This document shows positions 8,184 through 37,470 of a stretch of 64,000 bases of DNA, piece by piece. Below the pieces are notes generated by a model, which ran no database searches, was not told the DNA's origin, and worked only from the letters and a program-made list of their open reading frames with translations. Positions within the stretch are counted from its first letter, which is position 1, and each line of letters begins with the position of its first letter. The position numbers were made by a program, and so were the translations under genes. Source of the DNA: Candidatus Komeilibacteria bacterium (GTDB lineage: Bacteria > Patescibacteriota > Patescibacteriia > UBA1558 > 2-01-FULL-52-15); the NCBI GenBank assembly GCA_043801745.1, contig JAZDLR010000022.1, positions 65,960 through 129,959 of the forward strand, read 5' to 3'.

Positions 8184-11100
8184 TTAGTCGCCAACGACTT
8201 GAGCAGTTGAAGAAGTGGTGTCTAAACCTGGGACACGGAAGCCATTGTACCAACCAACGTTGTTAGTAGCAGTGGTTGTGCTGTACAGATCAAAGTTCAG
8301 ATCTGACCAGATAAAGTCACCCAAATCCGTAGTAGTGTAGACGCCCTGGGCATGCTTCTGCGAAGTAGCCGCGTAAGCATGGTCGCCAGCCATTACAACT
8401 GAAATGCTTTCATTGTCAGCTGTACCATCATGACCAGAACTGACCGTACCACGTAGAGTGAAGTAGCGGGTAGTTCCAGCTCCGATGACAATGTGTTCTC
8501 CGACAGTAGGATCACTGTCATCATTCACGTCAAAGTAAGAACGCATAGTTATGGTACCAGCACCCGTATTAGTCACTAGAGAGAAGTCAGCACCTTTGCT
8601 AACCAGATCACCCAGTGAACTAGACGAACTTGATTCATACAGGTAGTAACCCGTAGTGCTCAAGTAGACAGTCGTGGTGCTAACACCGAAGGTAAACCGA
8701 TAGAGACCAACTGGACCAGCGCTATCGGCAGCCACAGAGAACTTATACAAGTTAATTGTGTCATTGCCAGTGATAGTTCCGGAACCAGCAAAGTCAATCT
8801 TGGTAACAGTCGGCAAACTCTTGAAGATAGCTACGTCATTAAACGTAGTACCTATACCAGAAACAGTTAACGCCGAGGAACCAGCTGAAGTGCCGTTAGC
8901 GTCAATGTTAGTCAAGCTAACTTTGACACCTTCGCCAGAAGCCGCAGCCGACGGGCTACCAACTCCGGTAAAGGTGGCTTTCACCACATAGGTCTTTTCT
9001 TCGTTAACAGCCTGCTTCATGTTAGTCGGGGTAATAGTAGCATTAGCGCTGCTAAGTGATACTTCGCCCAACTTCGTGGAGCCATCCCACAGCGACAAGC
9101 TGGAGATATCCTCGTAATTACCGGCAATACCACCAGACGGACTGGCTAAGGTAAAGCCTAAGTAATTATAGGTAACACCTTCGTACTTCGGCTGAATCGT
9201 GACACGGCCGATTTCTACCGTACTACCAGCAATATAGTTGGAAGCTTTCGGATCGCTGGCAATAGACACGTTCAAGGTACCGCCAGTGGTAAGCTGCATA
9301 GCCTGACCATTAGCGTTCGTCACAGTCGGAGTGATAGCTTGCGCTTCACTGTCAACAGCAGCGATAGAACCAACAACCGAAGCACTGGTATTGTTCAAGG
9401 CCACCAAGAATGTACCAGAGGTAGCACCCGTACCAATATCGGCTTTCAACGTAACAACCTTGGAGGTTCCCTTAGGAATAATCAAGGCATTATCATTCAA
9501 AGTCAGAGTAGTGGTAGCGTTTGTTGCGGCAGTGCTACAGGTAGCACCACTGCAAGTAGTACTATCAGAATTGATACCAATCTCAGTTGCGCCAGACCAC
9601 AGGGTGAAGCCAGACAGAATGTTCGGATAAGCAGCACCAGTAGTCTTATAGGTCGGGGAAATAGAAGTAACTTCAATATCCGTACCGGAATTAACGGCAC
9701 TTAAGACATATTGAGCCACTGTGAAATCCTGCGAACCAGCTACGACAGTTTGAGCAGCCGGAGTGGTGTCAGTAGTGACAGCCAAGCTGGCGGCCTTAAC
9801 AGTCATAGTTGAAGACTGAACATTGGTAGCTGCCGGTAACACAGAAATAGTATTACCGGTTGTTTCACCTTTATTAACAATGGCACCGGCTTCTACACCG
9901 ACCTTAATGGTGTCACTAGCTGTAAAGTCAGAGCTTAAGTCAGCTTTGACAGTATAGGTACTTTCACCAACCGGAACAGAAATAGTATCAGTCGTAGTAG
10001 CGGTATTCTTCATACCAGCACCAGTGTAGGTAATAGCCGTAAAGTCTTTCGGACCAGCCACAACAGCGCCAGAAGGACCATAGACAGTTACATTAGTAAT
10101 GTCAGTAAAGTCCGCGCTGGCAGAAGTAGTTGTCAGGACGAAATTCCAACCAATGCTGGTAATATTCATCGGTTCACCCTTAGCAACAAACTTGAAGGAA
10201 CCCAAGGCTACTTGAGTCAAACCTTCAGAAATATTGGTTGGGCTGATAGCTAGTGATTCTACGCGCAATGTACCATTACCAACCGTGGTCTGGGCAGCAT
10301 TGAAGTAGGGGCTAGAACTTACTCCGGTAAAGGTTGGCAAGATGTTGGTATTGTAACTATTACCGGAAACCACTAAGTCACCCTGCATGTCAATATCCAT
10401 AGATATATCGCGACCAGAACCGCTGTCAATATCTAAACGTACATCAAAGGTAACGTTTTTACCTTTACCCAAGGTGTAGTTGATATTGCTGAAGGTAACT
10501 TTCTTTGTCGCGACTGTAGCCATAGTAGCTATAGTAGCGTTGGTATTGGCATTAACCAGCTTAAGATTCTTGATATCAGAAGCTGAAGTAGAGCCATTAT
10601 TGGTCAACGTCACGCTCTTGATAGTCAAATCTTCTTGACCACCAGCCGTAACCTTAAAGGAAGATACGATGTAATTGGTCGTACCAACTTCCTTGGTAGC
10701 AGCTGAAGGATTCTGACCACCGGCAACCACAGTAGCAGTACCTATAAGGATCGTGCCATTGAGATTCTGATAGTTACCACTAATTGGTAATGAACCAGTT
10801 AAGGTAGCGCCACCTTTTAAGGTAACTGACTGAAGAGCCAATACTGGCACTTCACCGGCGTAACTGGCTAAGCCAGAAGCAGAAGACGTATTGGCTGCCA
10901 TATTACCGGCAATAATAACACCTAAGGTGCTATTAGCCGGAATGGTCCAATCATCATTGAAAGTAGCAGTATGCTCTGAACCCAGAGACTTACTGTAATC
11001 ATTCAAAGGCTGACTATCAGAGGCTCGGAGTAAATCCAAGTCAGTGAAAGCGCCATCAGAAGCTATGCCAAGCCGTTTCACTACCGCTTGATCAACTGTC

Positions 11101-11927
11101 ACGTCAACACTGCTGTTGTTAGTGAAGTTAACCTTGGTAAAAGGATAACGGGCAGCAGAACCAAGCACCATACCAGTAGCAGGTGTATCGCTAGCCAAAG
11201 ACACGGTGACAGAGCCACCGATCTGAGGCACGTTAGAAGAGGCATTGATAGAACTCAAAGCACTCTCCTGACCGGTAATAGAACTACCGGTAGAGTAACC
11301 AGTCAGACTAGCGACCTTCACAACAAAGGCATAGTCAAAACTGTTAACAGTGAAGGCGTCACCAGAAGCAAACGGACGGATGGTCGTACCATCTACGTAG
11401 TAGATAGTAGAATCACCAGTCTTCTGAATCAGAGAACCAGTGGGGAAAGTGGAACCAAGGTCAGCGCCAACTGTATAGGTGGCAAAGAAATAACCCGGGA
11501 TCACATCATTAACCCGCTTGGCCCAGTCATTACCCCAGAGGGCTTTGGCTGCGTCTTCGGTCTTGATCCAATTCATCACACCGCCAGGACTAACGGCATA
11601 GACTTTGTTGCTATCAACGGTCTTTACCATTTTAGTACCAGGACGATAGGTTACGGCACCGCCAGCGGCATATAAATCCAAATCATTGACGGTTACCTTT
11701 TTGATACCATTGAAATTCTTGTACCAGGTGAAGTAGGTTTTGGCATCAGGAAAAACATACTTCTTGTTGTCCGCGCCGATGTAGTAAACTGCCTCGGAGT
11801 TCGGACCTTTGATCAAGTCACCAGCAGCCAAAGCATGAGCCGTCGGTACCATTACCGGAGCCATGTATAACATGGTAGTGACAAACATCAAAGAGACGAC
11901 GAAGAACTTCTTAACTAAATTAGACAT
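8184..11927 (-). CDS. giant secreted Thr/Ser/Gly-rich surface protein (1247 aa), putative S-layer/adhesin-like
   Basis: Signal peptide MSNLVKKFFVVSLMFVTTMLYMAPVMVPTAHA. Very low-complexity T/S/G/V-rich composition consistent with stacked beta/Ig-like domains. RBS GGAGATAG 7 nt upstream of the ATG. Confidence 0.55.
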   Translation of the reverse strand: MSNLVKKFFVVSLMFVTTMLYMAPVMVPTAHALAAGDLIKGPNSEAVYYIGADNKKYVFPDAKTYFTWYKNFNGIKKVTVNDLDLYAAGGAVTYRPGTKMVKTVDSNKVYAVSPGGVMNWIKTEDAAKALWGNDWAKRVNDVIPGYFFATYTVGADLGSTFPTGSLIQKTGDSTIYYVDGTTIRPFASGDAFTVNSFDYAFVVKVASLTGYSTGSSITGQESALSSINASSNVPQIGGSVTVSLASDTPATGMVLGSAARYPFTKVNFTNNSSVDVTVDQAVVKRLGIASDGAFTDLDLLRASDSQPLNDYSKSLGSEHTATFNDDWTIPANSTLGVIIAGNMAANTSSASGLASYAGEVPVLALQSVTLKGGATLTGSLPISGNYQNLNGTILIGTATVVAGGQNPSAATKEVGTTNYIVSSFKVTAGGQEDLTIKSVTLTNNGSTSASDIKNLKLVNANTNATIATMATVATKKVTFSNINYTLGKGKNVTFDVRLDIDSGSGRDISMDIDMQGDLVVSGNSYNTNILPTFTGVSSSPYFNAAQTTVGNGTLRVESLAISPTNISEGLTQVALGSFKFVAKGEPMNITSIGWNFVLTTTSASADFTDITNVTVYGPSGAVVAGPKDFTAITYTGAGMKNTATTTDTISVPVGESTYTVKADLSSDFTASDTIKVGVEAGAIVNKGETTGNTISVLPAATNVQSSTMTVKAASLAVTTDTTPAAQTVVAGSQDFTVAQYVLSAVNSGTDIEVTSISPTYKTTGAAYPNILSGFTLWSGATEIGINSDSTTCSGATCSTAATNATTTLTLNDNALIIPKGTSKVVTLKADIGTGATSGTFLVALNNTSASVVGSIAAVDSEAQAITPTVTNANGQAMQLTTGGTLNVSIASDPKASNYIAGSTVEIGRVTIQPKYEGVTYNYLGFTLASPSGGIAGNYEDISSLSLWDGSTKLGEVSLSSANATITPTNMKQAVNEEKTYVVKATFTGVGSPSAAASGEGVKVSLTNIDANGTSAGSSALTVSGIGTTFNDVAIFKSLPTVTKIDFAGSGTITGNDTINLYKFSVAADSAGPVGLYRFTFGVSTTTVYLSTTGYYLYESSSSSSLGDLVSKGADFSLVTNTGAGTITMRSYFDVNDDSDPTVGEHIVIGAGTTRYFTLRGTVSSGHDGTADNESISVVMAGDHAYAATSQKHAQGVYTTTDLGDFIWSDLNFDLYSTTTATNNVGWYNGFRVPGLDTTSSTAQVVGD

Positions 11928-17545: not shown

Positions 17546-17980
17546 TTATTTTTTAGACGGTTGATACATCCAACCAATCAGTATACCAAATACAACATTA
17601 GCGACCAGCCAGGTAATCATCCAGGAAATAGTTAACTCCAACGGCAAAGCTAAAGCTGATAGGCACAGAAAGAAAGTCGGCAGAGTACCAATCATCCAAA
17701 TCCAGAAACCGTATTGAACACCCTTATGAAGGCCTTTTCCGGGAATACCGTTGTAAAACAGGGTGTAACCCAAGACAAACAACAATGATTCCACGAAATA
17801 ACTGCCTAACTTCCAGCCGGCTGACGGTTCAAACCAAATGCTGGCATCCAGCGACTGATATAGCGGACTTAAATAATAGGTCATTACGATCGAAGCAACA
17901 TACAAAATGACCGTAAAGGCCACAGCAATTTCCAAAACTTTCAATTGTTCCGATAATTTCACAAAGTCACCTCCTTTCAC
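17546..17980 (-). CDS. small polytopic membrane protein, hypothetical
   Basis: 144 aa, four hydrophobic helices. Confidence 0.45.
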   Translation of the reverse strand: MKGGDFVKLSEQLKVLEIAVAFTVILYVASIVMTYYLSPLYQSLDASIWFEPSAGWKLGSYFVESLLFVLGYTLFYNGIPGKGLHKGVQYGFWIWMIGTLPTFFLCLSALALPLELTISWMITWLVANVVFGILIGWMYQPSKK

Positions 17981-19537: not shown

Positions 19538-20011
19538 TTACGCTCTCCTTTCCTTACAGCCGACACTCCACATCATTACTATTGGCTTTGGCCAGGAATC
19601 AACTACCGGACGCAGACGGTAAGGTAGCCGATTCTGCTTCATGATGCTATTTACGCTTTCGTAACGGGTTTTGTAATCCACTATAAGTGGTGAATTACCG
19701 CCGTTCTTCAACTGCTGCAGAAAATTCACGGCTCCGGAAGTTAAACCGCTAGCCGAAAAGATGGCGCGCCAGTCATCTTCCGATAAACAGTGGGTTAATT
19801 TGCATGAATGCGGACCTCCCCGTTTCTTATCAAGCTCAACGGCCGGTAGCTGTGTGCACAAAGAAATCAGGAGCTTGCCGCGGCTCGTGTATCTATGGGT
19901 GGCAATTAGTTCGTGAGTTGGTTGCAGAATACCCGCGTCTATCAACTTTTGCGTTGCGTCTGCAGCAACGCTAGTTACGATAGACTCTACCACTGTCTTG
20001 GGGTTTGACAT
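19538..20011 (-). CDS. hypothetical protein
   Basis: 157 aa; strong SD AAGGAGG 6 nt upstream of the ATG and its own promoter; no recognisable motifs. Confidence 0.5.
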   Translation of the reverse strand: MSNPKTVVESIVTSVAADATQKLIDAGILQPTHELIATHRYTSRGKLLISLCTQLPAVELDKKRGGPHSCKLTHCLSEDDWRAIFSASGLTSGAVNFLQQLKNGGNSPLIVDYKTRYESVNSIMKQNRLPYRLRPVVDSWPKPIVMMWSVGCKERRA

Positions 20012-26905: not shown

Positions 26906-26910
26906 TGGAA

Positions 26911-26975
26911 TTAGAAGTAAGAAGTAAGAAGTAAGGAGTAAGGAGTAAGGAGTAAGGAGGAAGAAGTAAGGGAAG
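26911..26975. repeat. tandem heptamer repeat G(A/G)AGTAA x ~9
   Basis: gaagtaa gaagtaa gaagtaa ggagtaa ggagtaa ggagtaa ggaggaa gaagtaa gggaag, directly upstream of mraZ. Confidence 0.7.
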
Positions 26976-27120
26976 ATAATAGTTATACACAGAGGTACCT
27001 AGTTATCCCCACTTTCTCCCACTACACTCCATTATATACCACTTGGGCTAAAATTTCAACCACTGATATCCACTTATTTACGACATATTGATGAAATTTT
27101 GGCAAACTGCCAAATATAAA

Positions 27121-27177
27121 ACCGCACCCCCAGCAACTAGGTCATAGTTGCATGCGAGGGTGCGGGTAAACCAGCGA
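27121..27177 (-). terminator. intrinsic terminator (minus strand) ending the GC-rich island transcript
   Basis: Minus-strand RNA CCGCACCC-ucgcaugcaacuaugaccuaguugcug-GGGGUGCGG followed by UUUUAUAUUU. Confidence 0.5.
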
Positions 27178-27181
27178 CCAT

Positions 27182-27688
27182 TTAGATCCCAATACAGTGA
27201 GACAAGGCCGCCCGTGCCGCCTGAACTTCACCCTCCGGCTTTCCCTGGGTCAGGATATTCATGATCTTTATGACCTCATCGCCAGTCAGGACATGTTCCC
27301 TGGCACCAACGGCTACCATCAGGGTATGGTCAAGGTCCTCCCGTAATCCCGAGAAGGACAGGAGTCCCTTCTCTGTCCTGATAGCGCCGCCGTACTCATC
27401 AAACCTCGGCCGCCGACTCTGCCAGCTGGAAACATGGTCCGGATGAGTGAGCAGCCGAGCCGATTTTTCGGTTGAATAGAACAGGTATTTGGGCAGCTTG
27501 TCTTCCCAGACGTCCCCAATGCCGTAAACCAGTTCCAACAAACCACTTTCGTGATTCCGGAGACTGAAGAAGCCCCCATGAGAATCACGATCGTGAAGGT
27601 GCCGGACCTTGGGAAAGATCTCCTCCAGGGCTGCGACGAGCCGCACGTGAAGCGGAGAGCTATGGATAGTAGGGTGGACCCATGACAA
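27182..27688 (-). CDS. hypothetical protein (GC-rich island gene 3)
   Basis: 168 aa; GC-rich codon usage; strong SD GAGGAGG 5 nt upstream; no confident family assignment. Confidence 0.5.
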   Translation of the reverse strand: MSWVHPTIHSSPLHVRLVAALEEIFPKVRHLHDRDSHGGFFSLRNHESGLLELVYGIGDVWEDKLPKYLFYSTEKSARLLTHPDHVSSWQSRRPRFDEYGGAIRTEKGLLSFSGLREDLDHTLMVAVGAREHVLTGDEVIKIMNILTQGKPEGEVQAARAALSHCIGI

Positions 27689-27740
27689 CCTCCTCAGTTA
27701 GAGACAGCAGTGTCCAGAAACTAAATCAATGAAGCCAAGC

Positions 27741-28169
27741 TTAGATGACAACCTGACTATCCTGCTCCTCCACCGCAGCCACCCAGTAGATTAGGTGGCC
27801 GGAGCCGGAACGATGTGTGATGGTCACCTGGCCCGGCGCAAACCTGATGTGTGGATTGTCGGACCGCGGGTCGTAGCCGCTGTCTTCCAGCAAATCGGTC
27901 CACAGATCCCAAACTCCACTGGAATCTGAGACGATCAGACCAGCACGCTTCCTGTCTGCTCCATAGTGAACCTGAACTGGATCACCGGTCGAATCCGACG
28001 CAAGCTGCTGACCGGGCAAAACCTTCGGCCTATAGTGGGAAGATTCGTGCGCGGTCACAAAAGTGAAGCGCCGACCCACAAGTAGTGTGCGTAACAAGGC
28101 GGCCACCCGTTCAATATTCCTGACAGTGAGCATGCCGCCCCAATTCAAATCCATCATCTTCTCTGACAT
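27741..28169 (-). CDS. hypothetical protein (GC-rich island gene 2)
   Basis: 142 aa; SD GGAAGGAG upstream; no confident family assignment. Confidence 0.5.
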   Translation of the reverse strand: MSEKMMDLNWGGMLTVRNIERVAALLRTLLVGRRFTFVTAHESSHYRPKVLPGQQLASDSTGDPVQVHYGADRKRAGLIVSDSSGVWDLWTDLLEDSGYDPRSDNPHIRFAPGQVTITHRSGSGHLIYWVAAVEEQDSQVVI

Positions 28170-28200
28170 TATCCTACTCCTTCCACTCGTAGCGGGAATA

Positions 28201-28662
28201 TCATGCTAACAACGAAATGTCAGAACTTCTGACCAGTATTGCCCGAGAATCTTCTTCCCAGCGGCTCGCCATGGCCATCATTGCTGACCATTCAACCTGA
28301 TGCTGGTTGCGGTCGTGGAAAACAGCCATATCTTCAAACGAGCCGTGCTCCATCTCAACAATGATCACCCGATAACCCCGGGCTTGGGCTTCCTGAAAAT
28401 AATGCTCATACTCCCAGAGCTGTGATGCGGTATTATCCACGATCACGGACTGACCACTTGCCAAGGCGCCTGAGAAGGTGGCATGACAAGCCGCGTGAGC
28501 CTGGGACAGTTGGGCCGGATCAAAGCAATATCTGCCAGCCTGCCAGAAGTAATCATCGGCGCTGGCAATAACTGCCTGAAATTTCCTGGCCAGCCAGCTG
28601 GCTACATGCGACTTTCCGGAACCCGGCAAGCCGCGCATGATGATGCAGACCGGTTCCATCAA
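28201..28662 (-). CDS. small P-loop NTPase, AAA_33/predicted-kinase-like (GC-rich island gene 1)
   Basis: 153 aa. Walker A GLPGSGKS at residues 11-18; Walker-B-like VIVDNT. SD AAAGGAG upstream. Confidence 0.6.
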   Translation of the reverse strand: MMEPVCIIMRGLPGSGKSHVASWLARKFQAVIASADDYFWQAGRYCFDPAQLSQAHAACHATFSGALASGQSVIVDNTASQLWEYEHYFQEAQARGYRVIIVEMEHGSFEDMAVFHDRNQHQVEWSAMMAMASRWEEDSRAILVRSSDISLLA

Positions 28663-28750
28663 TCAGCTCCTTTGTGAAAGTACGGTTCGAAAAAATCGGA
28701 ATATAACAGAATAACATAGTTTGATAACTATGTCAATAATTTTCATTAGA

Positions 28751-28778
28751 TTGTAGGATTTAGGCGTTAGGACTTAGG
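28751..28778. promoter_or_regulatory. TTAGG-rich motif copy (TTGTAGGATTTAGGCGTTAGGACTTAGG)
   Basis: Located upstream of a minus-strand -35 TTGACA / -10 TATTCT-like promoter for the island operon. Confidence 0.3.
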
Positions 28779-28867
28779 CTGAAAAAATAGCCCATTCATA
28801 ATAATTATTAAGTATTTAGGCATAACCAGCACATAGCCGCGTAGCCAAATTCTTGGTATAATTTACT

Positions 28868-29147
28868 CAATAACAAATGTTCACCCACGAACTAAATAGG
28901 GGTAAATAAAGAAAGAAGCTAATTTTAGCGTCTTTTAACGTCTCTATTTGACAAGTCTGTGGATAAGTGCAAGGCTGAAAGTCCTTTCAAACTAAAAGAC
29001 CACCTATACCGACGAGAGATATTTTCAAAATTGGTGGACCGCACGGGCTATGATCCCGTAATGAAGAGTTAGAAGCTCTTCGTGATGCCAATTTCACTAG
29101 CGGCCCACGCAATCTCTCGCCGATACAGGCGGTTTTTTATTACTCAA
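28868..29147 (+). ncRNA. candidate small RNA (weak call)
   Basis: Extended -10 TGGTATAAT at 28852-28860 (+); downstream hairpin CGCC-gatacag-GCGG followed by TTTTTTAT at 29122-29147. No ORF of 60 aa or more in the 1.2-kb intergenic stretch 28663-29850. Confidence 0.2.
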
Positions 29148-29743
29148 AAAAGCCACTAAAGGCAACCGCCCCGCCGATAACTAGTAAACTAGTCGCGGCA
29201 GTGTTCAAGCACCCAACGACCTTTCGGTCGGCGGGGAAGCTACCTTTAATGGCTTTAACAGCTATCTATTCGGTTGCCTTACCTCGGCTTGAAACGAGGT
29301 TAAATATCTATGAACAAATATATTTTATTGCTGAATCATTATAGCACACTTTTAAGAAAACAACAACTAACAATGACTAAAAAATCGTCCATCTTTCTAA
29401 TCTCCAGACCGATTAGCTAAAAATTGGTGGATACTAAATCATATCCTGACGATAATTATGGCATATAGCTATAATAAACGCACCTACATCTATAAGATCT
29501 CTCAATATTATTTTTCTGACCAATAAACTAACAAAAACAAAATACCAATATAACTAATGGATGCAAGAATTAAGGCTACAATTGGACTGGCTTTAAACCC
29601 TTCGATTATGCCATATACTAAGAGCGGTCCAATGACGAACATCCATAATAACGTCAATAGACCTTTTATTGTACTCATCATATATACAGACTATCAAACA
29701 TATTACCTGCAGTTAAGGGATAATAACCTTTAGATACCTCACC

Positions 29744-29848
29744 TGTCCTCTCCTTGTAAAGGAGAGGAACGCTACTAAAGAGGCTAATCGCTATGGCCAT
29801 CCATACATCCTCCCTCTCCTTTTCTAAGGAGAGGGTTGGGGTGAGGTT
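29744..29848. repeat. MITE-like palindromic repeat element, copy B (inverted relative to copy A; ~105 bp)
   Basis: ATACCTCACCTGTCCTCTCCTTGTAAAGGAGAGGAACG ... CCCTCTCCTTTTCTAAGGAGAGGGTTGGGGTGAGGTT. Shares both hairpins and the terminal inverted repeats with copy A; lacks A's ~65-bp GC-rich internal insertion. Confidence 0.5.
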
Positions 29849-29850
29849 GT

Positions 29851-30249
29851 TTAACTAGAGTTTTTACTTTTCCCTATCCTCGGCTTTGAGCTATACTCTG
29901 CTTTAATAAATACTTTTCTAGCTTTCTTTAAGCTTTTATTTATAGCGGCAACCGTAACAACGCCGTGATGGGCAAATACCGGCACACCCCAAGCCCAACC
30001 CAGAGAATTAACAACTGACACAGCCAGACGCTGTGAGGCTAGGCTCATGGGCGATTGTACTAAACCGATGGCTGACAAATGAATAGGTTTCACCTTGTTC
30101 CGTTTCAAAACTTTATCAATCAAGGGCAATAGAGCCTGATCTAACTTGGACGCCGCCACGCGAAGACAATGAAGTTTATTCCCACGTAACAAATAAACCG
30201 ACAAATAATTATCGCTTGTCGGCTCAATGACTAATACAACCGCGGACAT
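29851..30249 (-). CDS. tsaB: TsaB/YeaZ-like tRNA t6A37 biosynthesis protein, short form
   Basis: 132 aa. Pattern VVLVIEPTSDNYLSVYLL...LLPLIDKVL...LSAIGLVQSPMSLASQRLAVSVVNSLGWAWGVPVF matches the inactive Kae1-paralog N-domain (GPGSFTGLRIG equivalent present but degenerate). Confidence 0.55.
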   Translation of the reverse strand: MSAVVLVIEPTSDNYLSVYLLRGNKLHCLRVAASKLDQALLPLIDKVLKRNKVKPIHLSAIGLVQSPMSLASQRLAVSVVNSLGWAWGVPVFAHHGVVTVAAINKSLKKARKVFIKAEYSSKPRIGKSKNSS

Positions 30250-30828
30250 TTATTTGTTCAACTTATTGACCACAATAATAGGATTCAGATTCAACACCTG
30301 ATAGACAAACTTATCAGTCATGCTGCGGCGGTAGACGTATTCCTGTTTGCTAAAAATCGTGAAACGCAGATTGTCCTGAAATTCACCGGCGATTTTATTA
30401 ATAGCCCGCTGTACCACGGCCTTATCAACTGAACCGACCAAGAAAATATCGGTCGGCACATCAGTACCGTTAAAAATACCGGTTAAAATCAACAGCTGGA
30501 CGCCTTTAATCGTGGCCAGAGAAGAAGCCAGATTCTTCTCCATTAACATCAAAGACTTATAAATCAACGACTTGAATTCAGGCAATAATGTGAAGTCACG
30601 ATTTAATACCCAAGTTTTCTTACCATCGACCAAAGTCCTCTCAATAAAACCCATGGTCTCCAAAGAAGCCAGTTCAGTGACAATTTTTTTGCTGGTGCTA
30701 CGAAAACGGCGGGCCAACACTTCCGGTGCCACCGGTCCAGGGTTTTCCTGGACAAAATACTGTATTAGGCCAGCTCGCAAAGCAGAACCAAAAAGTAATT
30801 TCAACATAGAATGAAAATATTGTACCAT
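30250..30828 (-). CDS. hypothetical protein, possible winged-helix N-terminal domain
   Basis: 192 aa; no recognised motifs. Abuts tsaB (stop/start adjacent). Confidence 0.4.
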   Translation of the reverse strand: MVQYFHSMLKLLFGSALRAGLIQYFVQENPGPVAPEVLARRFRSTSKKIVTELASLETMGFIERTLVDGKKTWVLNRDFTLLPEFKSLIYKSLMLMEKNLASSLATIKGVQLLILTGIFNGTDVPTDIFLVGSVDKAVVQRAINKIAGEFQDNLRFTIFSKQEYVYRRSMTDKFVYQVLNLNPIIVVNKLNK

Positions 30829-34030: not shown

Positions 34031-34390
34031 TCAGTCAGCGACAGTAGCCGAATCGGAAACAGAGCCGTGCATCAAAATATCCTGAAGATGTTGACTGCGC
34101 AACCGTACCAAGCCGCGACCCAGATAATTCCGCACCTGGGTAACAGTCAGATCCAGCTCCGAAGCCACCAGCTGGATTGCCTGCTCTTCGGAACGCGACT
34201 TGCCGCGCCAGAAGTAAACCATGGCAACAGCCGCGGCCTGTCGGTTACTCAAAGTGTTAAAGGCCACCCTGAGGTTCTCAGCGCGCAATACTCGCTGCGG
34301 ATCATGCCGCGGTACCAAATCCGTTTGCAGCACTTCCCAACCACGCTGATCCAAAACCAATCCTCCTTGATTGATGAACACTGCCACCAA
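34031..34390 (-). CDS. sigma-70 region-4 (HTH) domain protein; possibly a truncated sigma-factor remnant
   Basis: 119 aa. LSNRQAAAVAMVYFWRGKSRSEEQAIQLVASELDLTVTQVRNYLGRGLVRLR is a canonical sigma region 4.2, but there is no region 2. TTG start, no SD, and GC-rich relative to neighbours. Confidence 0.4.
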   Translation of the reverse strand: MVAVFINQGGLVLDQRGWEVLQTDLVPRHDPQRVLRAENLRVAFNTLSNRQAAAVAMVYFWRGKSRSEEQAIQLVASELDLTVTQVRNYLGRGLVRLRSQHLQDILMHGSVSDSATVAD

Positions 34391-35536: not shown

Positions 35537-35854
35537 AATTTTGAATAGCTCATCCCCCTTCGCTAAAGCTTTGGGGGATTATTTCGCTAAAGCGAAATAA
35601 AATAATCTGTGAGTAACCACAGACATTAAGGTTTCCAGTCATAACTGGATGCGGCCTCGGTAGGAAATTAAGTCCTTCGACTCCTGCGTCTGACGCAGTC
35701 GCTCAGGACACCCACTGTCTGTGGCATTTGATTTGTGATCAGAGTGTATCAAAGTGATGACTTTTAGTCAACTGCCGCAGTTTCAAGTTGAAAGTTGGAA
35801 GTTGTCAGCAAGACGCTTTAAACATTCAACTTTCAACTGAAAACTATTAGCTAA

Positions 35855-35952
35855 CCCCGTTAGAGAAAGCCTAATTCAATAAAATTCCTCATTAAGAACA
35901 TGAGACTGGTAAAAAACCACATTTATTAAAACAATTTACATCTCTAACGGGG
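35855..35952. promoter_or_regulatory. 12-bp inverted repeat pair CCCCGTTAGAGA ...(74 nt)... TCTCTAACGGGG, 42 bp upstream of the ncRNA promoter -35
   Basis: Read directly from the sequence. The same IR pair with a different 52-nt interior recurs at 47515-47590. Confidence 0.35.
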
Positions 35953-35993
35953 CTAATATTAGCCAAATATACAGAATATTTGCATTTCAAGTC

Positions 35994-36023
35994 TTGACAA
36001 AAATTTAAGTATATGCTAGAGTG
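35994..36023 (+). promoter_or_regulatory. strong sigma70-type promoter: -35 TTGACA (35994-35999), 18-nt spacer, extended -10 TGcTAGAGT (36015-36023)
   Basis: gtcTTGACAaaaatttaagtatatgcTAGAGTg with an AT-rich upstream tract. Drives rightward transcription into the ORF-free GC-rich region. Confidence 0.6.
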
Positions 36024-36029
36024 CCCACA

Positions 36030-37251
36030 TTGCTTCTGGCACCCTGCTGGAAAGCAACTAGGCGCCTCAAGCGGCATCGCGTCCGCGAAGAGGATTTGAA
36101 CAAGTCTGGAGGGACCAAAAAACATGATCCATTCGACCTGCTACGCCTACATTTACGGCAACATCATCGCCTGAACCGGCCCCGGCCGGCGGGCCCAGGA
36201 GTACTGAACAGACGGACAAGCGACCTTCCAAAATGAGGATAACCCTCGGAGTCGCGATCCACTGACCCGGTTCCTGGCCCACACATCCACGCGAGCCGGT
36301 ACTGCGTTTGAAGCGGTAGCCGTTCGCTCTCCCCTGAGGGAGATTCCGGAAACCTAAACATACGCCGGAAAGGATAACCAGCAATGATGCAATGACCGCG
36401 CGTAGAGGTGCGCTCCCGAGATGCTCGCTGGTACTTAGAGAAGTACCCAACCCCAGCGACATCGAACTTTTCACGGACGCTCCACACGGGAGGAGCATCC
36501 AAACGGCGGGAGGGTCACCGCCGAAAACAAAGACTCTTGCCACAGCAGTCACTGCCAAAGCGGCAACTGACTGTGGGCATCACCATCCTGAATACCGGCC
36601 ACGAGGCCAGTACCGGAGGACGAGTGATCGGCATTATCCGCGCGTAGAGGAGCGCACCCGTTTCGATAGCCCCGGGAAAGAATTTAGTAACACCAACCCA
36701 ACCCGGCAGCTATCATGCTCCATACGGGAGGAGCAACCAGTAAACGGCGGAACGGTCACCGCCAAAAAAACGACCGCGTACATTCAAAAGCAGGTGGCGC
36801 CGCTTGCGGCCGGGCAGTTCCTGCTCGACTAGCAGGCGCACACGCGCCCCTTTTCTGTAAAAAAGACACACTGGTCGTGTCCGTCAGCCCACCGTTCCCC
36901 GCAATTGCCGGGAACATTGAACAACCATTTCGGGCCCGGACAACGCCAGTGTAACGTACGGCCGTGCCCACGGGTATTCCAAGCCCATTGTGCCGGCCGG
37001 CAAATCGCGCTGACTCTCTCGGGATACCGAGCAGCCGACCACAGGACCCCGGACTCACACCGCATTGAAAGGCTTCGGCTAAGGCGGGCTAGTGACTCTG
37101 GGCACATCCACAGGTCAAAGGCGCGATAGAACGACCCGGGATATGCAAGGGAGTAGAGAGGGTTCCGAACCAAATGGAACCACTCCCCCAAATATACCCG
37201 GCCAGTGCCCCAATCAATACATCGATTGGGGCACTATTTTTTTCGCCACAT
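36030..37251 (+). ncRNA. large (~1.2 kb) GC-rich structured ncRNA candidate of unknown class
   Basis: Bounded by the promoter above and a canonical intrinsic terminator at 37207-37251. Much more GC-rich than flanking sequence in an AT-rich genome. Every reading frame is broken into short overlapping ORFs (70-160 aa, all six frames), the typical signature of non-coding GC-rich sequence. Contains two homologous ~135-nt modules (36398-36532 and 36640-36772) and many hairpins. Confidence 0.5.
37207..37251 (+). terminator. intrinsic terminator of the candidate ncRNA
   Basis: GCCCCAATC-aatacatc-GATTGGGGC followed by ACTATTTTTTT; 8-bp perfect stem plus T7 run. Confidence 0.7.
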
Positions 37252-37470
37252 ATAAAAACCTACCGAGCACAGCTCGGTTGAGATCAAATGATGCGAACCC
37301 GCCGAAGCCCCGAGCTCGGTGAGGGGCAAATGGCGGGTAACTACCTTAAATTTAATCAGGTCTAATCCGACGGAAATAAACAAAAGCCAACCCGCCGACT
37401 CGGCCTCCGTAGCCGCTTCGGCGAAGGGGGCAGCGTCTGCGCGTAGGCGGTTATTTCCTACAAACTATTA

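Follow-up and report, generated by a model that had tools for sequence, protein, structure and literature searches.

Three small genes on the reverse strand were analysed in a 64-kb stretch of contig JAZDLR010000022.1 from a Candidatus Komeilibacteria bacterium (hereafter the window; coordinates refer to it unless a related locus is named). Their open reading frames (ORFs), located at 28201-28662, 27741-28169 and 27182-27688, encode proteins of 153 aa (152 aa when counted from the ATG), 142 aa and 168 aa, respectively. Exact protein matches to the block carry the NCBI locus tags V1846_05025/05030 of a Candidatus Komeilibacteria metagenome-assembled genome (MAG). Along the reverse strand, the order of elements is a tsaB-like gene (29851-30249), a 57-aa ORF, a candidate RNA, tRNA-Arg, a promoter, a kinase gene, the 142-aa ORF, the 168-aa ORF (the third gene), a terminator and the mraZ promoter, and mraZ-rsmH-ftsL-ftsI follows directly downstream of the block. 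The original prediction placed the block between the division and cell wall (dcw) cluster and a gene-free stretch of 1.2 kb; the former neighbour is confirmed, whereas the supposedly empty stretch holds tRNA-Arg(TCT), the candidate RNA and the 57-aa membrane-like ORF. The block is one promoter-to-terminator operon, since it has its own promoter and terminator, tight spacing on the same strand and Shine-Dalgarno (SD) sites.

The block is also a discrete unit of deviant composition, as had been claimed. The GC content of the region 27182-28662 is 0.545, compared with 0.444±0.031 across all 1481-nt segments of the window (z=3.3), and this level is reached only by the block itself and by a non-coding region at about 35.8-37.7 kb. 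The individual genes have a GC content of 0.54-0.56 and a third-position GC content (GC3) of 0.59-0.64, while the means for the genes of the window are 0.45 and 0.45. The excess is seen at all codon positions and is strongest at the third.

The original prediction gave all three genes of the block strong SD sites and the core genes of the window none; the first statement is correct in part. The kinase gene has the SD sequence AAAGGAG (28673-28667) 7 nt from ATG 28659, and the middle gene has GGAAGGAG (28184-28177) 7 nt from ATG 28169, but GAGGAGG before the third gene fits an out-of-frame ATG. In the window, the energy of the anti-SD duplex at first starts is no better than background (mean -3.2 kcal/mol versus -3.6 kcal/mol at random positions, 52 long ORFs); therefore, the genome is SD-poor and the block stands out. 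Nevertheless, three other genes have a good SD site: 8184-11927, 19538-20011 and 17546-17980 (via GTG 17962). The SD sequences outside the block are AAAGGAGGTGA before GTG 17962, AAAGGAGG and AAGGAGA. The gene at 19538-20011 encodes a 157-aa protein with no Pfam match and is located near tRNA-Glu.

Related loci were obtained by scanning species-representative genomes with RsmH (L007, L008), by look-ups of the third-gene family (L118, L119, L120) and from Logan contigs. The two Logan contigs, L001 and L002, overlap end to end; they are short and reach neither tsaB nor mraZ. In the L118 locus, which serves as the outgroup (its RsmH and MraZ are 58% and 73% identical to those of the window), the promoter is followed by the third gene and the terminator. 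L120 has the promoter, the kinase gene and the third gene. In L008, L007 and L001/L002, a gene of a Cys-rich membrane protein precedes the promoter, and the kinase gene, a lipoprotein gene and the third gene follow it. In the window, the 57-aa ORF, the RNA and tRNA-Arg precede the promoter, and the kinase gene is followed by the 142-aa ORF without relatives (ORFan) and the third gene. Thus, the kinase and third genes lie together in the tsaB-mraZ context in L007, L008 and L120, with the same gene order in L001/L002, and homologues in the same context exist for two of the three genes of the block.

The tsaB-mraZ interval is far more variable than its surroundings. Nucleotide synteny detected by blastn stops at the end of tsaB (29873) and restarts past the terminator (27073-27105), with an island of promoter homology in between. 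L008 and L120 are 95-96% identical at the nucleotide level on both sides, yet they differ by the 760-nt lipoprotein gene. When L120 is compared with L007, the flanks are 85-86% identical and the promoter 96%, while the kinases share only about 44-46% aa identity. Between the window and L007, the identity is 94% for MraZ and 78% for RsmH, but 40% for the kinase and 36% for the third protein; between L007 and L008, it is 79% for the third protein and 44% for the kinase. The locus is evolutionarily unstable: the middle slot is empty or carries the lipoprotein gene in relatives, and carries the ORFan in the window.

The gene of the Cys-rich multi-pass membrane protein (GC 0.37-0.43), located between tsaB and the operon promoter, was noted at 6379-7323 in L007, 36-596 in L008 and 13-840 in L001. 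L120, L118 and the window lack it, which adds a second presence/absence polymorphism to the locus.

A sigma-70-type promoter, TTGACA-17-TATTCT with TG, is located at 28708..28736 on the reverse strand (10 of 12 in the promoter scan). It is followed by a conserved 5' leader (28663..28707), in which the alignment shows TATATTCC..ATTTTTT..GT.CT.TCACA and which ends in the SD sequence AAAGGAG of the kinase gene. The core of the promoter and leader is invariant in five aligned genomes, including L118, where the promoter drives the third gene directly. In the blastn comparison, the window segment 28737-28671 matches L007 7548-7614 at 76%, and L120 and L007 are 95.8% identical across the promoter/leader segment. 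The promoter contains a 7-bp inverted repeat, ACATAGT-N6-ACTATGT, which spans the spacer from -35 to -10. In L001 and L118, both arms are changed (ACATAAT...ATTATGT) and the palindrome is kept; because this change, read from the alignment, is compensatory, the inverted repeat is regarded as a putative operator.

The intrinsic terminator of the operon, another claim that was upheld, is located at 27112..27165 on the reverse strand. It consists of a hairpin (27122-27165; -34 kcal/mol, z=-3.5) and a U-tract, UUUUAUAUUU. The terminator is 85% identical to that of L002 over 59 nt, and a GC-rich hairpin with a T-run is found at this position in all relatives.

The GC3 of the cassette is raised in every genome compared, and outside the clade the GC content of the third-gene family follows the genome GC. 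The raised GC and the SD sites thus appear to be long-standing properties of the cassette in all six genomes and not scars of recent transfer. The persistent GC excess may come from exchange within a GC-richer pool of alleles or from GC-biased gene conversion at a recombination hotspot. Judging by these comparisons, the operon is old, stable in position and fast-diversifying, with a swappable middle slot.

The first gene (28201..28659, reverse strand) encodes a stand-alone P-loop kinase of the polynucleotide kinase (PNK) type, 152 aa in length. Translation starts at ATG 28659; the ORF list begins one codon earlier, at TTG 28662, and the NCBI protein (P0001) is also 152 aa long. The Walker A motif GLPGSGKS occupies residues 11-18 and is invariant in six family members. 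The Pfam AAA_33 model matches at 52.6 bits (cut-off 27, E 8e-14), and the best PHROG matches are phrog_2071 'ATPase' (1e-23) and phrog_505 'polynucleotide kinase' (1e-10). A profile of the kinase family matches mammalian PNKP, PSTK, Pnkp1 and T4 PNK in the PDB. In an hhalign comparison with residues 1-149 of T4 Pnk (the sequence used is 100% identical to record X03007.1), the probability is 97% and the E-value 8e-11 over 131 columns. The small AAA_33/polynucleotide-kinase-type enzyme of the original prediction is therefore well founded. The P-loop Lys and Ser are kept, D36 corresponds to the general base Asp35 of T4 Pnk, and R118 corresponds to Arg126 of the lid.

Similarity to tRNA-directed P-loop proteins can also be noted. 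PSTK gives a full-length profile match (PDB 3adb and 3a4l, E about 9e-6, positions 3-137), and Pfam KTI12 matches at 23 bits against a cut-off of 22. However, unlike PSTK and KTI12, the window kinase is much shorter, has no C-terminal tRNA-binding domain and lies in no selenocysteine or Elongator context.

The kinase has no relative above 44% identity outside the clade, and the best ones are found on short contigs or viral contigs; the short contigs, packed with small same-strand ORFs, look phage-like. Viral homologues are numerous (596 phage records and more than 536 IMG/VR contigs, about 35-42% identity) and stand alone, with a median length of 138 aa. Of 80 viral loci, 21 encode an Rnl1-type RNA ligase and 32 a calcineurin-type phosphoesterase within 6 kb of the kinase gene. 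The RNA ligase is an immediate or near neighbour of the kinase homologue in Pseudomonas phage K5 and Acidovorax phage ACP17. Phage ATP-grasp RNA ligases have been reported to act with such kinases and phosphoesterases in heal-and-seal RNA repair (PMC7824862). The window kinase resembles the kinase domain of T4 Pnkp and the stand-alone 'ATPases' of K5 and ACP17 in the P-loop fold of the whole domain, and the latter also in size (about 140-150 aa) and stand-alone architecture. It differs from the phage kinases in being encoded in the chromosome of a Patescibacterium, where its gene is predicted to be co-transcribed with that of an unrelated protein family.

In a neighbour-joining tree, the five Komeilibacteria kinases are monophyletic with respect to 75 viral homologues, which favours a single capture. 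The kinase alone may thus be of foreign origin; it is phage-like and, to judge from the tree, was apparently acquired once, deep in the clade. An independent import of the L007 kinase from a phage was considered and rejected, as the tree groups all five Komeilibacteria kinases, and a divergent, possibly decaying allele is preferred. This allele (L007 7628-8140) is 40-46% identical to the other kinases in flanks of about 85% nucleotide identity, and it may have been inactivated or have taken on a new function.

The third gene (27182..27688, reverse strand; 168 aa as an ORF) encodes a member of a widespread, unannotated Patescibacteria family that carries the motifs SSWQSR, YGGAIR and SFSGL-E-DE. 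With clusters defined at 50% identity, 1,512 of 1.84 billion cluster representatives matched the family profile at E<=1e-3, 978 of them at E<=1e-10. The representatives listed are mostly 150-170 aa long, and the named ones are annotated as 'hypothetical protein', one of them from a Patescibacteria group bacterium. Neither Pfam nor NCBIfam matched any of 66 family members. Besides the three motifs, GG and EK..RL are near-invariant. No member was found in viruses, either in the viral-contig scan or in the BFVD fold search.

Elsewhere, the family occurs as a single gene among gyrA, dnaK/dnaJ/tyrS, tsaD, tuf, secA, rplM-rpsI and rpsB-tsf/rpmE-prfA. No kinase gene lies beside it outside the clade in 16 metagenome loci or in L003, L005 and L119. 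A link to genes of translation and of the tRNA modification t6A (N6-threonylcarbamoyladenosine), namely tsaB, tsaD, tyrS, rpsB and prfA, was considered and dropped: by a rough estimate, with neighbours assessed by eye, it is not clearly above expectation in the gene-poor genomes of the Candidate Phyla Radiation (CPR).

The start of the third gene is unusual. The in-frame TTG 27688 follows the SD sequence GAGGAGG (27695-27689) without any gap, and ATG 27683 lies 5 nt from this sequence. This ATG is one base out of the third-gene frame, and its own frame stops after seven codons (MGPPYYP*) at TAG 27660, so that the SD-to-stop segment covers 27660..27695 on the reverse strand. Orthologues begin with AAGGAG-N7-ATG GGT in L007 and GAGGAG-N6-ATG GGT in L120. 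Because relatives start at an equivalent SD-spaced ATG GGT, the most likely explanation is the gain or loss of 1 nt in the G/C runs right behind ATG 27683, either as an assembly error or as a real frameshift. With the frame restored, the protein would begin with MGPPTIHSSPL, comparable to MGLIEL in relatives; after a real frameshift, the gene would be a pseudogene or depend on reinitiation. The NCBI protein (P0006) is 119 aa long and starts from an internal TTG, while conservation among homologues reaches about 35 residues further upstream; for this reason, the annotated start is probably wrong.

An AlphaFold2 (AF2) model of the third protein, with a predicted local distance difference test score (pLDDT) of 76 and a predicted template modelling score (pTM) of 0.72, has an alpha-beta-beta-alpha-beta-beta-alpha core. 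In the Foldseek search of the PDB, the best matches were Ybr137w and ORFY (DUF336), followed by GAF and roadblock folds. The order of secondary structure elements is shared with the GlcG/HbpS/EfgA/Ybr137w family (DUF336, PF03928), whose structures 4clc and 2a2l are at the top of the Foldseek list with a probability of 0.95-0.99, and the GG...SG-x5-D motif spacing looks alike by eye. However, DUF336 has no counterpart of the invariant SSWQSR and EK..RL motifs. The PDB profile search with the third family gave no support for DUF336, and none of the 66 members matched its Pfam model even at E<=10. Membership in DUF336 was therefore rejected, and only the weak likeness of fold is retained. The third protein is regarded as a small alpha/beta protein, probably with a ligand-binding or regulatory role.

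The middle gene (27741..28169, reverse strand) encodes a 142-aa ORFan. Among 5.8 billion proteins, the search for homologues found only the protein itself, and no match was obtained in Pfam, PHROG, PADLOC or NCBIfam. The protein is unrelated to the lipoprotein that occupies the same slot in relatives: tblastn found nothing with the 142-aa protein in any of the loci or with the lipoprotein in the window. Of the three block genes, it alone is unique to the window and absent from the same site in relatives. Its single-sequence AF2 model, with a pLDDT of 36, is unusable. Since its GC1/GC2/GC3 pattern is like that of both neighbouring genes of the block and its SD site is good, the ORF is probably a real gene specific to the window. 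It may be of foreign origin.

On balance, we lean slightly towards the following history and mechanism for this promoter-to-terminator operon in the hypervariable tsaB-mraZ interval of the Komeilibacteria clade. The oldest occupant would be the third gene at the 3' end, together with the conserved promoter and its palindromic operator. A phage-type, stand-alone polynucleotide-kinase-like gene would have been inserted once between the promoter and the third gene, in the ancestor of the subclade of the window. The slot between the kinase and third genes would then have been filled, emptied or swapped, so that it is now empty in L120 and holds the lipoprotein gene in L007, L008 and L001/L002 and the ORFan in the window. 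The kinase would use the gamma-phosphate of ATP to phosphorylate RNA at 5'-OH ends, as is thought for T4 Pnk and the phage homologues; its substrates would be tRNA or other RNA that metal-independent ribonucleases have cut. The phosphorylated ends could then be ligated or enter 5'-monophosphate-dependent decay. The third protein, a small alpha/beta sandwich in which many polar residues are invariant, would be co-transcribed with the kinase and may be its ligand-binding or regulatory partner. A dimeric repressor bound to the operator, which overlaps -35 and -10, probably gates transcription.

Several observations speak against this view. The residue equivalent to Arg38 of T4 Pnk, which contacts the substrate phosphate, is an invariant Phe39 across the kinase family. 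The L007 kinase has Asn at the position of the catalytic Asp (ASANHFF), and for this reason some lineages may have a decaying kinase or be able to do without it. Kinases of small molecules, too, belong to AAA_33. Unlike the genes of T4 Pnkp, K5 and ACP17, the window gene has no fused or neighbouring 3'-phosphatase/phosphoesterase and no RNA ligase. Searches by phmmer with the Rnl1, phosphoesterase and HD proteins of K5 and ACP17 against the ORFs of the window, L007, L008 and L118 found no phage-type RNA ligase or end-healing phosphoesterase, so at most a partial repair pathway is evident in these loci. The polarity of kinase gain or loss depends on a single outgroup, L118. For the third protein, the fold matches are weak (Foldseek E 0.017-0.08; TM-score 0.44-0.48), hhalign of its family against a DUF336 profile of five sequences (GlcG and four PDB sequences) gave a probability of only 0.6%, and the SD-linked start of its gene is frameshifted as assembled.

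Three other explanations, all less well supported than the one just described, were weighed. The original prediction of a three-gene island, acquired horizontally as a unit and serving in defence or nucleic-acid modification, to which a possible integration site at the tRNA may be added, has several points in its favour: the deviant GC and GC3, the SD sites in an SD-poor genome, the separate promoter and terminator, tRNA-Arg about 370 nt upstream, the abundance of the kinase family in phages and the ORFan in the middle. Deviant composition, variable content at a fixed interval and, in this genome, a neighbouring tRNA are likewise features of tRNA-adjacent genomic and defence islands. In such islands, however, integrases, attachment (att) repeats or known defence genes are expected, and here no integrase or transposase was found among the window ORFs, no direct repeats flank the block, and PADLOC-DB 2.0 recognised no system among the three proteins, the kinase giving only a domain-level match to CARF_PDDEXK_AAA (3.9e-14). 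Integration at tRNA-Arg was rejected, as the only repeat of the tRNA 3' end is 12 nt long (29027-29038 and 29420-29431), is near chance level (about 0.4 expected in 3.6 kb) and lies upstream of the tRNA rather than at the block's far end; moreover, the related loci lack the tRNA. Across the clade, the core of the cassette keeps its position, the outgroup carries only the third gene downstream of the shared promoter, and the third family is widespread and elsewhere found among housekeeping genes. Because the kinase and third genes are kept at the same site in relatives, the trio is not an island acquired by this genome; as a unit, this explanation is largely refuted, and we consider it very unlikely, its defence part included.

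A toxin-antitoxin or conflict module, in which a zeta/AvrRxo1-type toxin kinase would phosphorylate an essential metabolite, the middle or third protein would serve as its antidote and an arms race would drive the rapid turnover of alleles, also seems improbable. Pfam Zeta_toxin does match the window kinase at 33.8 bits (cut-off 22.3), mainly in the P-loop (best stretch only residues 3-30), although in L120 the match covers residues 6-118, and AvrRxo1-ORF1 matches with E 0.008. The strong divergence of the kinase and third protein relative to the flanks and the presence/absence of the middle gene between strains would suit such a module. Nevertheless, the whole-domain matches to T4 Pnk, PNKP, PSTK and KTI12 are stronger, phage homologues lie in RNA-ligase cassettes and not in toxin-antitoxin pairs, and the family of the proposed antitoxin occurs alone in well over 1,000 lineages and in L118. 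The alleles do not co-vary, as the 79% and 44% identity of the third protein and kinase of L007 and L008 indicates, and a kinase-first order is atypical of epsilon/zeta pairs. A small metabolic or sensing pair, with an AAA_33 small-molecule kinase acting on a ligand bound by a GlcG/GAF-like third protein, is an unlikely alternative for other reasons: no metabolic neighbours were seen in any context examined, the nearest solved or profile relatives of the kinase act on polynucleotides or tRNA, and DUF336 membership has no sequence support. It would fit the weak matches of gluconate, APS (adenosine phosphosulfate) and nucleoside kinases of AAA_33 and its clan, the ligand-binding DUF336 and GAF domains among the best fold matches of the third protein, and the many invariant polar residues of its family.

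The preferred reading, a phage-type kinase captured into a native operon, allows a bolder extension, which we regard as unlikely. The kinase and the SSWQSR/YGGAIR protein would form a new RNA-end-processing or damage-response module of Patescibacteria, at a recombination hotspot that keeps divergent alleles and swappable middle genes (lipoprotein, ORFan) between strains. Such alleles and middle genes at a hotspot are the pattern expected of genes in conflict with phages, hosts or competitors of episymbionts.

Some neighbouring features of the window should also be described. The tRNA-Arg(TCT) gene (29032..29106, reverse strand), found by ARAGORN and by Rfam (tRNA, 49.7 bits), lies outside the operon. 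Directly upstream of it, a candidate structured RNA of about 115 nt (about 29145-29260, reverse strand; minimum free energy z=-5.6) is predicted to form a long stem around a three-way junction, with a GAAA loop and a terminal U-run. It has no Rfam match at E<=5 and was not found in the related loci. Just past the tsaB stop codon, at 29747-29834, there is an 88-nt imperfect palindrome with arms CCTCTCCTT...AAGGAGAGG, which is probably a terminator or a repeat element; its Rfam matches are at chance level only. A neighbouring gene at 30250-30828 encodes a 192-aa winged-helix-like protein, a candidate for binding ACATAGT-N6-ACTATGT.

Repeats were also noted upstream of mraZ (26907-26971 and about 27000-27075). 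Immediately before its start, the heptamers GTAAGGA/GTAAGAA (forward strand) are repeated in tandem; in relatives, a different heptamer takes this place (CTCCTAA in L007, TTCCTAA in L118). Slightly farther upstream, the mraZ promoter lies among five AGTGG boxes, which resemble the MraZ-binding repeats of the literature. Two GC-rich regions were found farther away. At 34031-34390, downstream of rplL, there is a compositionally deviant 119-aa ORF (GC 0.547) with a weak match to sigma-70 region 4. The region 35800-37400 (reverse strand), just upstream of the L10 leader (35589-35742), contains about 1.4 kb with a GC content of 0.53-0.59 and only overlapping, junk-like ORFs on both strands. Part of it is duplicated in tandem (period about 241 nt; e.g., 36389-36527 and 36631-36768), and no Rfam family matches the region even at E<=1. 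In appearance, it is a large, GC-rich and structured non-coding RNA or element.

The operon is a new arrangement of a known kinase type and a widespread CPR family, and not a demonstrable defence island. Since the function of the kinase operon was deduced from sequence, the practical impact is moderate. If the proposed history is true, a cassette that stands out by its composition and SD sites in an SD-poor CPR genome can be old, stable in position and quick to diversify, and need not be a recent transfer, which would call for caution in calling islands in MAGs. It would also document strain-level cassette polymorphism at a fixed site beside the dcw cluster in reduced genomes. Finally, it would give the first genomic handle on an unannotated Patescibacteria family of about 1,500 clusters at 50% identity, which has no Pfam or NCBIfam model and which, in one clade, would be wired to a polynucleotide-kinase-like enzyme.

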